DNA of 44,782 nt from the NCBI GenBank assembly GCA_038063995.1, contig JBBTUA010000006.1:1-44782 (forward strand). Reading direction: 5' to 3'. The translations under genes were made by a program, and so were the position numbers. Positions 1-39,257 of this stretch are shown piece by piece. The notes under the pieces were generated by a model. The model did no database searches, was not told the origin of the DNA, and saw only the letters and a list, made by a program, of their open reading frames with translations. Positions within the stretch are counted from its first letter, which is position 1; each line of letters starts with the position of its first letter. The stretch comes from Patescibacteria group bacterium. Its GTDB lineage: Bacteria > Patescibacteriota > Minisyncoccia > 2-02-FULL-40-12.

Positions 1-107
1 GCGTGCCATTTCCAAGAAGGGCCGCCCCTATGAAGAAAATGATGTTGCGGGACGGTGAATGTTTGAGCAGGAAAGGGCGAGAAGAAGTTGGCATACCCGA
101 TTAAGGC
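1..107 (+). repeat. Right arm of a large structured intergenic element, cut by the window edge (type A arm followed by reverse type B arm)
   Basis: CAAGAAGGGCCGCCCCTATGAAGAAAATGATGTTGC resembles CAAGAAGGGCTACCCTTATGAAGGAATTGATATTGC at ~32736-32771. TTGAGCAGGAAAGGGCGAGAA (63-83) is the reverse complement of TTCTCGCCCTTTTCTGCTCAA at ~20914-20934 with 1 mismatch. Confidence 0.7.
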
Positions 108-6642: not shown

Positions 6643-7832
6643 GATCGTATAGAATAATACTAGCTGGCGGCGGAACTGGCGGCCATATCTTTCCGCTAGT
6701 CGCAGTTGCCAGAGAACTTAAGAAAAAGGCCGATGAAAAAGGCTTGAATTTGAAGCTTTTGGCTGTGGCTGAAGACAATATCTGGAGAAATGAATTTGAG
6801 AAGGAAGGCATAAACTTCAAAAGGATTTTTGCTTTGAAATTGCGCAAAGTAGAAGGAGGCCGGATTAATTTCTTAGCCTTTTTTGTTCTTCCTTTTACTT
6901 TGATTCAGTCTCTTTGGCTTCTTTTTTTATTTATGCCTGATCTCGTTTTTTCAAAGGGCGGTTTTGCCTCTGTTTTTCCTTCTTTGGCCGCCTGGTCGTA
7001 TTTTATTCCCGTATTTATCCACGAGTCGGATTCAATACCCGGTAAAGCAAACATTTTGCTTTCGAAATTCTCCAGAAAAGTTTTTATTTCTTTTGAAAAT
7101 GCAGCCGGATATTTTCCGGCTCCAAAAACAATTTTAAGCGGCAATCCAGTAAGAAAAGAAATATTTGGCGGCGACAGATCGCAGGCTCTGAACCGCTTTG
7201 GTTTCGGTCCTGATAAAAAAACCATTTTGTTTTTGGCCGGAAGCCAGGGTGCGGCATTTATAAATAATTTGGTAATCGATAGTTTGGTTCAGTTAGTAAA
7301 GGAATTTCACCCCGTTAGAGGCCGCGAGGGCCCGCAGCGTGCCTCTGCCTCTAACGGGGTTCAGATTATTCATCAGGCCGGAATAAATAACTTTGAACAA
7401 ATGAAAAAAGAACTTGAGCAGTTAAAACGGGAAGGGGAATCAAGCTATGCGGCTGATATTGAAAAGAATTATCGGCTTTTTGGCTTTTTAAGCGAAGAAG
7501 AATTAAAAGACGCTTTTGCCGCAAGCGATCTTATTGTAAGCCGCTCCGGTTCTAATATTTTTGAGATCGCCGCGTTGGGTAAGCCTGCAATCGTTATTCC
7601 TTATCCTTATTCTGCCGGAGAGCATCAAAGGCAAAATGCTATTGAATTTGCGAAGTTTGGAGCAGTTGTTCTTGAAGAACAAAACCTTAAAACCCATATT
7701 TTAATTGATCAGATAAAAAATCTTTTAAAGCCGGAAAACTATTCGGCTGTAAGCCAGCAGATAAAAAGCTTTGCGAGAGTTGAAGGCGGAGGAATAATCG
7801 CCGCCGAAATATTTGAATATTTAAATATATAA
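6639..7832 (+). CDS. murG: MurG glycosyltransferase with an 18-aa palindrome-derived insert
   Basis: GGGTGGHIFP, KGGF, HESD, GNPVR, GSQGA, HQRQNA. Confidence 0.93.
   Translation: MRSYRIILAGGGTGGHIFPLVAVARELKKKADEKGLNLKLLAVAEDNIWRNEFEKEGINFKRIFALKLRKVEGGRINFLAFFVLPFTLIQSLWLLFLFMPDLVFSKGGFASVFPSLAAWSYFIPVFIHESDSIPGKANILLSKFSRKVFISFENAAGYFPAPKTILSGNPVRKEIFGGDRSQALNRFGFGPDKKTILFLAGSQGAAFINNLVIDSLVQLVKEFHPVRGREGPQRASASNGVQIIHQAGINNFEQMKKELEQLKREGESSYAADIEKNYRLFGFLSEEELKDAFAASDLIVSRSGSNIFEIAALGKPAIVIPYPYSAGEHQRQNAIEFAKFGAVVLEEQNLKTHILIDQIKNLLKPENYSAVSQQIKSFARVEGGGIIAAEIFEYLNI
7310..7359. mobile_element. 50-bp in-frame palindromic insertion with 4-bp TTCA duplication
   Basis: CCCCGTTAGAGGC...GCCTCTAACGGGG flanked by TTCA at 7306-7309 and 7360-7363. 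Removing 54 bp restores EFQIIHQ. Confidence 0.9.
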
Positions 7833-20871: not shown

Positions 20872-21153
20872 CCGTAAACATACAATCTAGACCTCTCGGG
20901 TATAAATAATTTATTCTCGCCCTTTTCTGCTCAATGCCTTTCAGGAAACGCTCGGCCTCATACATCTTTTATACAAAGCTCAACTCCTGTCTTTAAGAAA
21001 AAACCCTCGCTCCTCGTTCGCCTCGCTACAAAGATTATCTCCTCAATACGGCTCGGCTCACGAGGTTCCTGATAAGGCATTACGCAGCGGGCTCGAAGAA
21101 TAGAAATTATTTATACCCCTGCGGCTCTAATCTAAAGATAAATGTTTGCGGCT
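20870..21153 (-). repeat. Large structured intergenic element, type B copy 1
   Basis: Terminal IR AGCCGTAAACAT/ATGTTTGCGGCT, inner IR GGGTATAAATAATTT/AAATTATTTATACCC, core AAACCCTCGCTCCTCGTTCGCCTCGCTACA shared with 32060 and (reversed) 39141. Confidence 0.85.
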
Positions 21154-21197
21154 GACTGCTTGTAAAAAATTTTGTTCTTCGATTTAATATGAAAAGG

Positions 21198-21301
21198 CCG
21201 CAAGCTTATCTAAAAGATTTTGAATGGGGATTATTTATTTGATGAACAAAGAGAGAAGAAGGAGGCTATGCCCGAGAGGCTTTTTTTCTGAACGCTTGCG
21301 G
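21198..21301 (+). repeat. Degenerate structured element facing away from type B copy 1
   Basis: IR CCGCAAGC/GCTTGCGG; TATGCCCGAGAGGCTTT is the reverse complement of the type B arm AAAGCCTCTCGGGTATA with 1 mismatch. Confidence 0.55.
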
Positions 21302-22452: not shown

Positions 22453-23661
22453 ATGAGATTTAAGGTACTAGTACCTGTTATTTTAATTTCGCTTGTCGCA
22501 GGTTTTTTTGGCGGCGTCCAGTTTCAAAAAAGCCAGGAACCCATACCTAGCGGATTAAGAGAATTGATCAATAAAGATGTCGGTCAGCCAGAGGCCGTTG
22601 ATTTTAGTTTGTTTTGGGATGCCTGGAATCTGGTTCATGAAAGATATGTTGATCGCGGAGAACTCGATACTCAAAAAATGGTTTTCGGGGCCATAGAAGG
22701 AATGGTTAAAAGCATCGATGATCCATTTACTGTTTTTCTGGAAGCCGATGAAAGTTCAAGGTTAAGAGAGGAAATAAGCGGCGAGTTTGCCGGAGTGGGC
22801 ATAGAAATCGGGGTAAGAGACGAGGTTCTTACTGTTATTGCTCCTTTAGAAGATACGCCGGCGGATAAAGCCGGTATAATTGCCGGAGACAGAATATTAA
22901 AGATAAACGGCGAATCGACTGTTGGGATCAGTTTGGAAGACGCCGTTTCTAAAATAAGAGGCCGAAGAGGAACAAAAGTGACTTTAAGCATTTCCAGAAA
23001 GTTGGACAGCCGTGAAGAAACCAAAGATGTGGAATTGACCAGGGAAAAAATAAAAATTCCGACGGTTAAATGGTCGGAAATTCAGCCCGGAATCGGATAT
23101 ATCCAATTATTCAGTTTTAATCAAATAGCTAAAGGGGAATTTGATAAAGCAATTGGAGAACTAAAAAAGAAGGGAGCGGATCAAAAACTAATTTTTGACT
23201 TGAGGAATAATCCGGGCGGGCTGCTTGATCTGGCAATAGATATTTCAAGCTACTTTTTGGACCCGGGTCAGGTTGTAGTCATTGAGGATTTTGGAGAAGG
23301 GCAAAGGAAAGAGCTTAAGGCGAAGCCAAACGGAAGCCTAAAAAATACGAAAGTCGTGATTTTAATAAATAAAGGCTCGGCTTCAGCCTCGGAGATAGTT
23401 GCCGGTGCTTTAAGCGACAATAAAGGAGTAAAGTTGATAGGCGAAAAAACCTTTGGTAAAGGTTCGGTTCAGCAAGTCGAAGAGTTAAGATTCAAAACGG
23501 CATTAAAGATAACAGTAGCAAAATGGCTTACGCCAAAAGGCCGCTCCATTTCCGATGAAGGCATCGAGCCTAATATTAAAGTTGAAAGAGTAGAAGACGA
23601 TATTAAAAACGACCGCGATCCGCAATTGGATAGAGCGGTGGAAGAAATCAAAAAACTATGA
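22453..23661 (+). CDS. S41 carboxyl-terminal processing protease
   Basis: PDZ GVGIEI, DLRNNPGG, SASASEI, TFGKGSVQ. Confidence 0.94.
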   Translation: MRFKVLVPVILISLVAGFFGGVQFQKSQEPIPSGLRELINKDVGQPEAVDFSLFWDAWNLVHERYVDRGELDTQKMVFGAIEGMVKSIDDPFTVFLEADESSRLREEISGEFAGVGIEIGVRDEVLTVIAPLEDTPADKAGIIAGDRILKINGESTVGISLEDAVSKIRGRRGTKVTLSISRKLDSREETKDVELTREKIKIPTVKWSEIQPGIGYIQLFSFNQIAKGEFDKAIGELKKKGADQKLIFDLRNNPGGLLDLAIDISSYFLDPGQVVVIEDFGEGQRKELKAKPNGSLKNTKVVILINKGSASASEIVAGALSDNKGVKLIGEKTFGKGSVQQVEELRFKTALKITVAKWLTPKGRSISDEGIEPNIKVERVEDDIKNDRDPQLDRAVEEIKKL

Positions 23662-31863: not shown

Positions 31864-31866
31864 TAG

Positions 31867-32173
31867 CTCGGACACACCCAATTTCTAAATAATAAAGCCT
31901 CTCGGGTATAGTTGTTTCAGAAACGTTCGGTCTCATACATCTTATATTATAATTATCTTATCTCCTGTTTATCAGAATATGAATAAGAATTCATATAATA
32001 ACTGCGTTCGGTTGAAATGAGTAAATTTATTTACTCATTTCTCCCTCACTTGTTATTATAAACCCTCACTCCTCGTTCGCCTCGCTACATATCTTATTCT
32101 TCTCTTAACGGCTCGGCTCACGAGGTTCTTCAACAACCATACCCTGCGGCTTTATTAGAAATTGGCTATATCC
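31867..32173 (-). repeat. Large structured intergenic element, type B copy 2, with an ~81-bp nested hairpin insert
   Basis: IR CCAATTTCTAA/TTAGAAATTGG; shared core at 32060-32128; extra sequence at 31979-32059 relative to the other copies. Confidence 0.85.
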
Positions 32174-32239
32174 TCCATCAGTCATCTTTCAGATTCCGTC
32201 TTGTCAGAATTTCGCCGGCGAAGCCCGGAGAATATTTAC

Positions 32240-32276
32240 AAAAACGATGAAGCCCGCGAGAAGCGTGGCTTCATCG
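32240..32276 (-). terminator. Intrinsic terminator of the small minus-strand ORF
   Basis: CGATGAAGCC...GGCTTCATCG with an A-run on the left (U-tail on the minus strand). Confidence 0.7.
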
Positions 32277-32289
32277 CGGGCGTTGGTTT

Positions 32290-32505
32290 TTAGCGAAGCA
32301 GCATTGCTCCTGCTAGAGCTAATACGGCGCCGCCAACACGAAAGTTCCAACGAGCAAAGCTTGCACGAGGATGATGAATAGATTCATGCAAGCTTTGCGA
32401 GGTTATGATAAACCCAGCAAGAATTACTGCTAACTCCCACCTTCCGGCAACGACCGGTAAGAGCACGAACAGAGGGAAAATCCATCGGTTGAATATGTGG
32501 TTCAT
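32290..32505 (-). CDS. Small orphan membrane protein
   Basis: 71 aa, hydrophobic segments, AAGGAGGT SD, own terminator. Confidence 0.65.
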   Translation of the reverse strand: MNHIFNRWIFPLFVLLPVVAGRWELAVILAGFIITSQSLHESIHHPRASFARWNFRVGGAVLALAGAMLLR

Positions 32506-32586
32506 TTATGCACCTCCTTTTTCTAATCTATAGTTTATTTTTACTTTTGTCAACGGCGGATTTTGGAGCGAAGTTTTAATATAGTA

Positions 32587-32789
32587 AGCGAAAAGCGGCG
32601 AGCAATATCAATTTTTGAATTGGGAAGTATCTTGCAAATTGCCGGAATCTTTATGAAAATTTGCCGATGACAAATCTACGGGGGAGGTATCCTGATTTGT
32701 CGGCAAATTGAATAAAGTAACGGAGATTCAATTTACAAGAAGGGCTACCCTTATGAAGGAATTGATATTGCTCGCGCAAGGTTTTCGCT
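32587..32789 (+). repeat. Large structured intergenic element, type A copy 1
   Basis: Nested IRs AGCGAAAA/TTTTCGCT, GCGAGCAATATCAATT/AATTGATATTGCTCGC, AATTTGCCGA/TCGGCAAATT, GACAAATC/GATTTGTC. Confidence 0.88.
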
Positions 32790-32797
32790 ACATATAA

Positions 32798-33673
32798 ATG
32801 AAACTTTTATTTTTCGGCACATCAGACTTCTCAAAGCCGGTTTTTGAGGTCTTAAAAAAATGTGATTATTCCCCTATTTTGTGGAATCAGCAGGGTTCTT
32901 TTGACGACTTTAAAAAAATAAATCCCGATATCTGCATTGTCGCCGCTTACGGAAAAATAATTCCGAAAGATTGGCTTGAAATTCCTAGATATGGATTTTT
33001 GAATATCCATCCCTCGCTTCTGCCAAAATACCGCGGGGCCTCCCCTATCCAAACCGCAATTTTAAACGGCGATAAAGAATCCGGTATTACTATAATTTTG
33101 ATGGATGAAAAAATAGACCATGGGCCGATACTCGCTTCGCGAAAATTTTCAATTTTCAACAGCAATTCCGCAACGAGCCGCAAGCGGCTCGGCGGAACCT
33201 TCGACGAGCATTTTAAATTTTCAAAATATAAAGAATTGGAAAAAGAATTGGCAGAACTGGGAGCACAGCTTCTTATTGAAACCTTGCCAAAGTGGATTGC
33301 CGGCGGGATAAAATCAAAAGAGCAAAATCATAATCAGGGAACTTATACTAAAAAATTATCGTGGGAAGATGGTAAAATTGACTGGTCAAAAACTGCGGTA
33401 GAAGTTGAGCGGCAAATCAGAGCTTTGAATCCGGAGCCGGGTACTTGGACCACATGGAACAACAAAGTTTTAAAAATTATTGAGGCCGAATCAATAGAAT
33501 CAAAATTGGCCGGTGAACCTGGCTTGGTGATTAAGGTTGAAAGTGAGGTTTTGGTGAAATGCGGGGTTAATGCCTTGATTCTTAAAAAAGTCCAGCTTGA
33601 AGGCGGGAAACCGCTTTCAATCAAAGATTTCCTAAACGGCCATAGAAATTTCGTCGGTTCCAAATTGACTTAG
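32798..33673 (+). CDS. fmt: Methionyl-tRNA formyltransferase with an in-frame insert
   Basis: FFGTSDF, VAAYG, NIHPSLLPKYRGASPI, DHGPIL, IRALNPEPG. Confidence 0.95.
   Translation: MKLLFFGTSDFSKPVFEVLKKCDYSPILWNQQGSFDDFKKINPDICIVAAYGKIIPKDWLEIPRYGFLNIHPSLLPKYRGASPIQTAILNGDKESGITIILMDEKIDHGPILASRKFSIFNSNSATSRKRLGGTFDEHFKFSKYKELEKELAELGAQLLIETLPKWIAGGIKSKEQNHNQGTYTKKLSWEDGKIDWSKTAVEVERQIRALNPEPGTWTTWNNKVLKIIEAESIESKLAGEPGLVIKVESEVLVKCGVNALILKKVQLEGGKPLSIKDFLNGHRNFVGSKLT
33159..33209 (+). mobile_element. 51-bp in-frame hairpin insertion in fmt, inside an AATTTTC heptamer array
   Basis: ACAGCAATTCCGCAAC-GAGCCGCAAGCGGCTC-GGCGGAACCTTCGACGAGC; arms near-identical to 36622-36669. Confidence 0.88.
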
Positions 33674-33882
33674 CGAAAAGCTTTCCTCGGCATATGTTTT
33701 CGAAAACCGCTCACAAAACCCAGCGAGTTTTGCTCGCTGTACTTGCGACCTCCTAAAGTCAAGACTAGCCCTCGCTCCACCCAGCTAAGCTGGGCTTCGC
33801 TCGGTCTTCATACAATCTTGACTTACCCTGCTAGTCGGTCTCCAGAACTTTTCGAGAAACATATGCCTCGCGCTTTTCGCTA
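33671..33882 (-). repeat. Large structured intergenic element (type C, with A-like ends and B-like modules)
   Basis: IRs TAGCGAAAAGC/GCTTTTCGCTA, GGCATATGTTT/AAACATATGCC, AAGTCAAGA/TCTTGACTT; modules CCCTCGCTCC and GCTCGGTCTTCATACA. First TAG is the fmt stop. Confidence 0.85.
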
Positions 33883-33980
33883 GATTAAGAATCAAAACTC
33901 GGCTGTACCCTTGAGCTCTGATTATTTTGAAACTATACGTGTTTTATATGCCTTTACTTTTCGGTCAAAAAGTATAAAAT

Positions 33981-34178
33981 TAGAAAGCGGCTCGGCATCT
34001 AAATTTCTGAGTCTGGGGAGTCGTCTTAGAAAATAGCCGCTATCTTTATGAAAATTTGCCGAATGATAAATCTATGGCGGAGGTACCCTAATTTATCGGC
34101 AAATTGAATAAAGTGGCGCGCTATTTTCAAGAAGGGGCACCAAAGGAAGAAATTTTGATGCCGAGCGCAAGCTTTCTA
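33981..34178 (+). repeat. Large structured intergenic element, type A copy 2
   Basis: IRs TAGAAAGC/GCTTTCTA and GCTCGGCATC/GATGCCGAGC; ATCTTTATGAAAATTTGCCGA and TCGGCAAATTGAATAAAGT identical to copy 1. Confidence 0.88.
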
Positions 34179-34185
34179 CTTATTC

Positions 34186-34755
34186 ATGTTAGGAATGAAC
34201 GATCTAAAAATCGGGACTTTTTTTATAATAGAGGGACAGCCTTACGAAGTTTTGTATTCCCAGCATCTTAAAATGCAGCAGCGCCGGCCGGTAATGCAGA
34301 CTAAAATAAAAAACCTTTTGACCGGAAAGGTAATTGAGAAGAATTTTCAGCAGTCCGACTACTTCGAAGAAGCCGACATTCAGAAAAAAGAAGTTAAGTT
34401 TTTATACTTTCACAGGAACGAATTCTGGTTTTCAGAACCAAATGATCCATCCAAAAGATTTAAATTGGGTGAAGATATTATTGGCGAATCAGCTAAATTT
34501 TTAAAATCCAATACATCCATAATCTCGCTTCTTTTCAATGGCCAAATCATAAATATCGAGCTTCCGGTTAAAATTGATTTTAGAGTTATAGAGGCTCCGC
34601 CATCAAGCCGCGGCAATACCGCCCAAGGAGGGACAAAGCAGGTTAAAATCGAAACTGGCGCAATGATTAATGCACCTCTTTTTATTGAAGAAGGAGACAT
34701 TATCAAAATAAATACCCAAACCGGCGAATACGCTGAAAGAGTTGAAAAGAAATAA
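34186..34755 (+). CDS. efp: Elongation factor P
   Basis: KIKNLLTG, IELP, GNTAQGGTK, ETGA, PLFIEEGD, GEYAER. Confidence 0.95.
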   Translation: MLGMNDLKIGTFFIIEGQPYEVLYSQHLKMQQRRPVMQTKIKNLLTGKVIEKNFQQSDYFEEADIQKKEVKFLYFHRNEFWFSEPNDPSKRFKLGEDIIGESAKFLKSNTSIISLLFNGQIINIELPVKIDFRVIEAPPSSRGNTAQGGTKQVKIETGAMINAPLFIEEGDIIKINTQTGEYAERVEKK

Positions 34756-39074: not shown

Positions 39075-39257
39075 AGCTGCCCGTTTGGCGATGCCTTCTC
39101 AGGAACCTCGCGAGCCGAGCCGTAAGTAGAAGATAAACTATGTAGCGAGGCGAACGAGGAGCGAGGGTTTATTCTGATAAACAGGGAACTACCTAATTTA
39201 TTACAAGTTGTATGAGGCCGAGCATTTCCTGAAAGACATTGCCAAAAAAGGGCAGCT
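39075..39257 (+). repeat. Large structured element, type B, inverted relative to the other copies
   Basis: IR AGCTGCCC/GGGCAGCT; TGTAGCGAGGCGAACGAGGAGCGAGGGTTT (39141-39170) is the exact reverse complement of 21001-21030. Confidence 0.87.

Follow-up and report, generated by a model that had tools for sequence, protein, structure and literature searches.

Among described mobile repeats, those of the REPIN/RAYT system come closest to the elements reported here. In Bertels & Rainey 2011 (PMC3116915), REPINs are hairpin units that carry compensatory changes, are mobilized by a RAYT and are proposed to pass through a single-strand intermediate. They are ~70-110 nt long, the REP 16-mers at their ends are most conserved while the spacer is variable, and each family is accompanied by a RAYT (Y1_Tnp) gene. 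We analyzed a DNA window of 44,782 nt, one whole contig (JBBTUA010000006.1) of the 395-kb Patescibacteria genome GCA_038063995.1 (12 contigs, 85% complete; hereafter G000), in which two ~200-nt rod-like hairpins lie just upstream of the genes fmt and efp. The rod family that includes both is named type A here. Type A rods resemble REPINs, as portrayed in that account, in being many-copy, non-coding, extragenic hairpins that are the putative replicative unit, carry compensatory changes, occur in clusters and would pass through a single-stranded form. They differ in being ~200-260 nt long, in conserving the apex and internal loops while the basal helix varies, and in the absence of Y1_Tnp from five genomes searched. 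REPIN/RAYT is the closest described system, and neither of the features that define it in that account, the RAYT gene and the conserved ends, was found for the rods.

Correia elements are 100-160 bp long, with 26-bp terminal repeats and an unpaired interior, and are cotranscribed with effects on mRNA. Correia/NEMIS elements and other miniature inverted-repeat transposable elements (MITEs) share with the rods a small size, inverted-repeat ends, TA flanks, a position beside genes and the lack of a cognate transposase in the genome; unlike Correia elements, the rods are paired from end to end, show covariation and have strand-specific loops. The conserved terminal inverted repeats of a MITE are seen in the rods, whereas no transposase-bearing relative was found. 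ERIC/IRU and Rickettsia palindromic elements (RPEs) are imperfect palindromes of 100-150 bp that form long hairpins when transcribed and whose presence varies between strains; RPEs also enter coding regions. Both occur in other phyla and have unrelated sequences, without the modular nesting or common motifs of the rods, and no Rfam model of theirs matched. A likeness to RPEs is seen in a separate 52-nt repeat that is also borne by a coding region, inside fmt.

attC sites and the end hairpins of IS200/IS605 elements are recognized as folded single strands in a strand-specific manner, and in both the structure and extrahelical bases are conserved while the stem sequence varies, a combination that recurs in the rods. 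attC sites measure 57-141 nt, carry R boxes and follow cassette ORFs (open reading frames) in arrays by an integron integrase, whereas the neighbors of the rods are housekeeping genes (def, fmt, efp, L25) and form no cassette array by an integrase. The IS200/IS605 hairpins, short structures in a subterminal position, depend on a Y1 transposase; with respect to these and to TnpB guide RNAs, PF01797 and PF07282 were each found in 0 of 5 genomes. The rods also differ from retron and diversity-generating retroelement (DGR) RNAs in not lying next to a reverse transcriptase gene, and from riboswitches and other cis-leaders in having no fixed sense orientation at orthologous loci.

The genomes of bacteria of the candidate phyla radiation (CPR) are among the smallest and most streamlined known and, in most descriptions, contain little mobile DNA. 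Literature on CPR, Patescibacteria or Parcubacteria combined with MITE, repeat or structured-RNA topics yielded, for the terms searched, no description of such elements. Among hairpin miniature mobile repeats, the rods are unusual in their length, RNA-like loops, modular nesting and restriction to one family, and in that no transposase was found. The explanation we favor, with moderate confidence, is that they are a lineage-restricted family of small non-coding hairpin mobile repeats, REPIN- and MITE-like, of which a single-stranded form is used.

Fold, covariation and strand asymmetry

Copy 1 (32587..32789, + strand) is a full hairpin that ends 8 nt before the fmt ATG at 32798, and copy 2 (33981..34178, + strand) ends 7 nt before the efp ATG at 34186. 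An initial annotation, made from the letters of the window, had placed ~200-nt rods at these positions and named both downstream genes; the distances agree, and Pfam identifies the ORFs (simple calls made for this analysis, 400 in G000) as fmt (Formyl_trans_N/C) and efp. As RNA, copy 1 folds into a single, nearly unbranched rod at -82.7 kcal/mol, compared with -46.6 +/- 4.0 kcal/mol for its shuffles (z -9.06; 0/200 shuffles folded as well). Copy 2 reaches -85.3 kcal/mol (z -9.13), and DNA parameters predict the same rod (-49.0; z -9.1). The 3′ arm of a further type A copy, truncated by the contig start, occupies 1..55 (+ strand). This partial copy, also proposed earlier, is real: positions 8-48 of the window match positions 145-185 of copy 1 at 83% (blastn), and the motif CAAGAAGGG is legible in the piece.

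The two full copies share a mean column identity of 83%. The paired stem changes read from them initially are legible in the sequence (GCGAGCAATATC/GATATTGCTCGC versus GCTCGGCATC/GATGCCGAGC, GACAAAT/ATTTGTC versus GATAAAT/ATTTATC and AAATTG/CAATTT versus AAATAG/CTATTT), as are the loop motifs said to be kept: GAA opposite GA, GG opposite CGCAA, the apical GGAGGTA and CAAGAAGGG. Over the 63 base pairs of a covariance model, R1, built from 11 G000 copies, 9 pairs are compensated between copies 1 and 2, 4 carry one-sided changes that keep the pair, 5 are broken in one copy and 45 are unchanged. Among the 11 copies themselves, aligned with MAFFT, 19 of the 63 predicted pairs show double pair-keeping changes. 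R1 scores copy 1 at 197.3 bits on the + strand and 40.5 bits on the - strand, and copy 2 at 194.9 and 50.6 bits, respectively.

Covariation held in a larger alignment to R1 of 29 forward-strand copies from G000 and six relatives (seven genomes). Of its 1739 cells, 95.4% are paired, versus 82.3% after column shuffling and 35-44% when partners are slid by 1-3 columns. Double changes occur in 34 of the 63 pairs (shuffles, 21.7 +/- 1.8), and none of 500 shuffles reaches any of five covariation measures. G-U cells number 93 versus 12 for A-C (27 pairs contain some G-U and 12 some A-C), and because G-U outnumbers A-C, the fold is selected on one strand. The antisense strand of copy 1 folds at -73.6 kcal/mol, the sense strand being 9 kcal/mol more stable. 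Together, the covariation and the excess of G-U over A-C are strong evidence that the rod fold is kept by selection on one defined strand, and they bear out the original proposal of selection on a single-stranded fold.

Unpaired positions are 67% purine. Their conserved features are a UGAA/UGAA tandem G-A, GAA opposite GA, an A-rich bulge and the apical GGAGGUA, and 14 of the 29 copies carry C-GNRA-G in the 3′ basal loop (GCAA 7, GAGA 5, GGAA 1, GAAA 1). Across type A, the apex and internal loops are most conserved and the basal helix most variable. Snap-back copying of one arm from the other was rejected as the source of the pairing, since it would erase asymmetric loops and G-U pairs, both of which are conserved. 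We also rejected the apical GGAGG as a peptide start or ribosome-binding site: no conserved ORF follows it, and Shine-Dalgarno-like motifs are rare in G000 (GGAG upstream of 21/279 ORFs, without a G-rich peak).

No named family matched, in line with the initial annotation, which had been unable to assign the rods to one. At gathering thresholds, Rfam 15 searched over the whole window passed two tRNAs and nothing else, and a permissive search of 32500-34250 gave as its best match a plant miRNA-precursor hairpin, at 25.4 bits versus a threshold of 211 bits. Readings as 6S-like RNA, SRP-like RNA or a K-turn found no Rfam support.

Copies, insertion sites and related rods

The combination of blastn and R1 located at least 12 full-length type A copies on seven contigs of G000, scoring 116-229 bits; the opposite strand at those 12 loci scores 27-55 bits. 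All 12 are intact, and few decayed ones were seen. Further type A pieces lie at contig ends. The family of G000 (f1) comprises this genome and seven others, and R1 matches six of those seven, with 5-16 matches per genome among the matches listed, which are not copy numbers; G002 (95% complete) gave no match. The genomes searched are incomplete metagenome-assembled genomes (MAGs; 85-99% complete). In three other families of the same order, R1 matched 1 of 58 (f2), 0 of 26 (f3) and 2 of 9 genomes (f4), all weakly and with the core GCGAA-AAUUUGCCG...CGGCAAAUU-GAGC retained, and it gave no match at E<=1e-5 in 149 other genomes of the class (73 other families sampled). The exact core motif occurred at seven loci in MAGs labelled Parcubacteria-group, Patescibacteria or 'Candidatus Saccharibacteria'. 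On these matches, type A rods appear to be lineage-restricted, confined to one Parcubacteria family lineage.

The def-fmt-efp block is syntenic throughout f1, and the presence and orientation of rods within it vary. In G000, the 512-nt fmt-efp spacer holds a type C element, then a type D remnant, then an A copy in + orientation; the 573-nt spacer of G005 holds an inverted A copy plus a type D rod, and G001 has an antisense A copy in the spacer after fmt. No rod separates the two genes in G006 (32-nt spacer), G007 (18 nt) or G003, in which they overlap. def and fmt are adjacent in G001 and G003 and 934 nt apart in G000 (window 31864-32797), where the insert holds a D-type rod, a minus-strand 71-aa ORF without a Pfam match and copy 1. 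G006 carries a rod block of ~560 nt upstream of a 446-aa gene, and none is present there in G001, of the same genus. The block combines a type C element with an A rod that lies inside another basal hairpin, and it sits at the 3′ end of the upstream gene; the type C insert replaces the last codons of that gene and supplies its stop. Similarly, the stop codon TAG of fmt in the window (33671-33673) consists of the first bases of a type C element, whereas fmt of G006 ends in TAA followed by unrelated sequence. In one other spacer, G003 and G007 carry a rod in opposite orientations.

Relative to neighboring genes, 12 of the 29 copies are co-oriented, 10 anti-oriented, 5 convergent and 2 divergent, so that the position just upstream of fmt and efp is incidental. 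The genes downstream of A copies are functionally unrelated. An A copy precedes the L25 gene in both G000 and G001; orthologous sites excepted, no protein family recurs beside rods. Two G000 copies (C3:6937-7132 and C5:5505-5700) are identical at 196/196 positions, with unrelated flanks, and the identity is bounded by the first and last base of the basal stem, which indicates that the complete hairpin recently moved or was gene-converted.

Self-comparison of G000 finds 19,577 bases (5.0%) repeated, including repetitive protein genes and a DGR-like locus; the intervals with most matching copies, mostly blocks of 450-580 nt, contain rods. The locus is present in eight DNA runs from two studies, all groundwater metagenomes. 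Contigs were compared in four runs from the two studies, where repeat bins are 10-40 times deeper than flanking genes. All four contain a contig in which 34 other letters replace 32584-32797, that is, a related strain without copy 1. We regard the mobile or repeated nature of the rods as close to certain.

On contig C10 of G001, two gene blocks meet across a single A copy; in G000 they are found on two contigs, each bordered by an A copy (C5, 5505-5700; C2, 14873-15069). As blocks contiguous in G001 are split at A copies in G000, rods may be recombination breakpoints.

Rods of other types accompany type A. The type C palindromic element of the fmt-efp spacer (33672..33881, - strand) has TA-flanked termini AGCGAAAAGC...GCTTTTCGCT, is repeated in the genome and folds at -94.9 kcal/mol (z -7.4) on the - strand and -76.4 kcal/mol on the + strand. 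The same termini surround type B copies and, in relatives, make up the outer shell of ~260-nt A elements. The type D 5′-end remnant next to it (33891..33922, - strand) lies head-to-head with copy 2 and can be aligned to the ...TTCAGAACTCGGCTGTACCCTGCGGCTCTGA ends shown by type D elements that precede other A copies; type D stands head-to-head beside six A copies in G000. The D-like rod of the def-fmt insert (31900..32150, - strand; z -6.7) has termini CTCGGGTATAG...CATACCCTGCGG, contains the repeat intervals 31977-32128 and has a metagenome depth of 233-610 versus about 13-20 in its flanks. Type B (three copies) has an apical 56 nt in common with type A at 96%, with differing arms. The basal module CGCAGGGGTATA-N-ATTTCTGAA ... 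GAAGAAATTG-N-TATACCCCGAGAG occurs both in type D and in the A copies of relatives.

The termini (A)GCGAAAAGC...GCTTTTCGC(T) are common to type C, long type A and the shells around type B, and G000 type A ends in the variant GAAAGC...GCTTTC. The 8-mer CGAAAAGC occurs 29 and 23 times versus 5.7 expected per strand. TA stands on both sides of several copies: the form TA[GCGAAAAGC...GCTTTTCGC]TA is seen, as is TA[GAAAGC...GCTTTC]TA in three of four A copies with that terminus. TAG precedes about 6 of 16 termini, and TA is itself palindromic. By their common basal modules, apical modules and CGAAAAGC termini, types A, B, C and D are evidently one superfamily.

A separate 52-nt palindromic repeat lies in frame within fmt (window 33158-33211) and two other ORFs; its loci in G000 also include C3:11693-11745, C3:3596-3647 and C3:9186-9241. 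The fmt sequences of G003 and G002 align as two pieces that skip residues 121-142, and the repeat in fmt looks like an in-frame insertion in the manner of RPEs. Its tail, GGCGGAACCTTCGACGAGCA, recurs alone, often directly before an ATG (C8:4088-4110, C3:17044-17065, C3:9186-9241 and others). Further repeat intervals of the window (20908-21281, 39091-39253 and 7306-7371) match other contigs, some at contig ends; 20900-21290 as a whole folds no better than shuffles (z -1.6).

Mechanism and competing explanations

A REPIN-like mechanism for the rods would run as follows. What spreads is, on this view, the complete hairpin, bounded by the outermost bases of its basal stem. It inserts into AT-rich spacers immediately adjacent to genes, pointing either way, and commonly beside or within other rods. 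The element would be recognized or processed as a single-stranded hairpin, as proposed for REPINs, and the intermediate could be single-stranded DNA (ssDNA) or RNA, which we judge about equally likely. If the sense-strand hairpin is what is recognized when the element is copied or moved, only folding lineages would leave descendants; selection on the fold would thus act through propagation, with new copies arising only from copies whose sense strand folds correctly. The mobilizing enzyme would be none of the known transposases for which we searched.

Several observations count against this explanation. In G000, G001, G004, G005 and G006, with control genomes positive throughout, Y1_Tnp/RAYT (PF01797), TnpB (PF07282), DDE_Tnp_1 and IS110 were each found in 0 of 5 genomes and rve in G001 only, and DDE_3 (IS630-type) was found in 0 of all 8 f1 genomes. 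No enzyme to act in the proposed single-strand mechanism was thus found, in genomes 85-99% complete and, for G000, in a Pfam scan of 156 of the 400 ORFs. Neither a transposition intermediate nor an excision footprint nor a clear target duplication came to light, and the identical pair could also reflect conversion of one older copy by another. Significance is inflated in the shuffle test, given that the copies share ancestry and were aligned by fitting to the model structure; the test makes no phylogenetic correction. Inherited G-U pairs at two positions (21/28 and 15/28 copies) supply much of the G-U count. C-GNRA-G, tandem G-A and abundant G-U pairing are characteristic of functional RNA and would suit an RNA useful to the host as well. 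An ordinary element that cuts and pastes as double-strand DNA could likewise have the conserved termini and the TA flanks.

Among the 156 Pfam-scanned ORFs of G000 were serine recombinases, a LAGLIDADG protein, RNase III, RNase Y and an RRM protein, and no transposase. One Xer-like tyrosine recombinase was found in each of four of the five genomes and none in G004. A reverse transcriptase with a DGR-like repeat pair occurs in four of the five, beside no rod: that of G000 lies at C12:14977-15978, and C12 has a single A-type match, at its far end (23391-23448). G004 (87% complete) has 16 R1 matches among those listed and no reverse transcriptase hit. Near the G000 reverse transcriptase (C12:16329-16839) is a 136-bp repeat pair of 86% identity that resembles DGR template and variable repeats, with related pieces on C7:53293-53676. 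At C5:32547-34288 of the same genome, a 506-aa ORF similar in DNA sequence to the serine recombinase gene of C1 (1728-3230; split into two ORFs) is bracketed by 124-bp inverted repeats of 98% identity and may be an invertible segment. The GyrB of G000 carries an intein, and a LAGLIDADG ORF lies at C2:18623-19420.

Searches for a carrier or an autonomous form were negative as well. By blastn, 50,697 phage and 72,556 plasmid records contained no match to the rods, and the exact 24-nt core motif had 0 matches in viral contigs. Two degenerate 20-mers hit five viral-contig stretches; none was matched by R1, and we discarded them as chance. A metagenome scan for the type C terminus returned 75 stretches, about 65 of them chance matches in unrelated high-GC DNA; in the remaining true matches, about 10, the partner end lay at 180-264 nt or none was seen within 2.1 kb, and no ORF-bearing version was evident.

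The rods might instead be a family of functional structured RNAs carried on a repeat, with the fold of each copy selected for host use of the transcript, possibly as a protein-binding or sponge RNA, an mRNA end-stabilizer or processing site, or a two-way terminator. This explanation, which we hold to be unlikely though worth keeping in mind, has in its favor the RNA-like motifs on one strand (tandem G-A, GAA opposite GA, C-GNRA-G in 14/29 copies, G-U 93 versus A-C 12) and the intactness of all 12 full G000 copies beside few decayed ones. Where copies in different genera occupy a shared locus, both retain the fold while differing by 7-13 compensated pairs; the core around AAUUUGCCG and CGGCAAAUU persists in divergent relatives from other families, and A-runs and T-runs flank the basal stems in some copies. 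It is harder to reconcile with the mixed orientation to neighboring genes and with a unit that has no conserved promoter; given both, any transcript of roughly half the copies would be of the antisense strand. Four copies lie only about 12 nt from a neighboring rod, the identity of the twin copies ends at the hairpin base, presence differs at the same locus between close relatives, which is unexpected for a needed RNA, and none of the Rfam families searched matches. A narrower RNA role, as cis-regulatory 5′ leaders of fmt, efp and other downstream genes, we consider very improbable. Both window copies are co-oriented with the next gene and end 7-8 nt before its ATG, an A copy precedes L25 in two genomes, and the promoter-like hexamers TTTACT-16-TAAAAT (33953..33980, + strand; 9/12 matches to consensus) stand directly 5′ of copy 2. 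The site that the initial annotation took for a promoter thus exists, but a consensus scan found five such sites in 2.1 kb versus 3.4 +/- 1.7 in shuffles, and because this is not above the shuffled number we treat it as a mere consensus match, on which the earlier suggestion that copy 2 is transcribed depends. Ten of the 29 copies are antisense to both neighbors and five lie between convergent genes, fmt and efp of G006, G007 and G003 have no rod, the spacer copy of G005 is inverted, and the genes downstream of other copies are functionally unrelated. The leader role proposed at first for the rods upstream of fmt and efp is contradicted by this picture of a many-copy mobile repeat of mixed orientation whose orthologous spacers are empty or inverted; the alternative offered alongside it, a transposition substrate, fits much better. 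It is plausible that copies 1 and 2 fall within the 5′ leaders of fmt and efp as a side effect, a suggestion that rests on their orientation and the weak promoter match.

If transposition is the better reading, the rods could still be ordinary MITEs that move as double-strand DNA. The DDE transposase responsible, of the IS630/Tc1-mariner kind with TA as its target, would then have its gene outside this genome, perhaps in a phage or another member of the community, and the hairpin would be a by-product of long inverted repeats. The CGAAAAGC termini common to long type A, the shells around type B and type C across genera, the abundance of that 8-mer above expectation and the TA flanks, including the TA[GCGAAAAGC...GCTTTTCGC]TA form, agree with this, as do the small size, non-coding nature, high copy number and mutual nesting of the elements. 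We nevertheless rate such an origin as improbable. TA, being self-complementary, may simply extend the palindrome. DDE_3 and DDE_Tnp_1 were missing from the genomes searched for them, the terminus scan gave miniature versions only, and a double-strand mechanism leaves ~200 nt of pairing with 34 covarying pairs, asymmetric loops and a one-strand G-U excess unexplained. A most conserved apex and a most variable basal helix are, moreover, the reverse of what is expected of a transposase-bound inverted repeat. It is because the MITE explanation fails on whole-length covariation, asymmetric loops, G-U excess and the variable basal helix that we favor REPIN-like logic for the rods.

A further and more speculative step, which we rate as unlikely while setting it out, is that the rods represent a new kind of mobile element able to dispense with a classical transposase, the ~200-nt single-stranded hairpin itself being what is excised, recognized and inserted. 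Either RNA would be copied back by a resident reverse transcriptase, or ssDNA would snap back with the help of host replication or repair enzymes, and recognition would run through the conserved G-A-rich loops and apical hairpin. If this were true, a transposase-free hairpin would be spreading within and between the smallest bacterial genomes and reshuffling their gene order.

Nested rods are the most often repeated class among the repeats that make up ~5% of the DNA of a 395-kb genome. They interrupt operons (def-fmt), provide genes with stop codons, lie at putative rearrangement breakpoints and cause assemblies to fragment, and they would serve as a practical marker and an assembly warning for this Parcubacteria family. 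Given the strong strand-specific selection signal, the rods would be either a structured RNA family without a known relative or a hairpin-borne mobile element, and on either reading they would offer a tractable model for the spread of hairpin repeats such as REPINs, Correia elements and ERIC.

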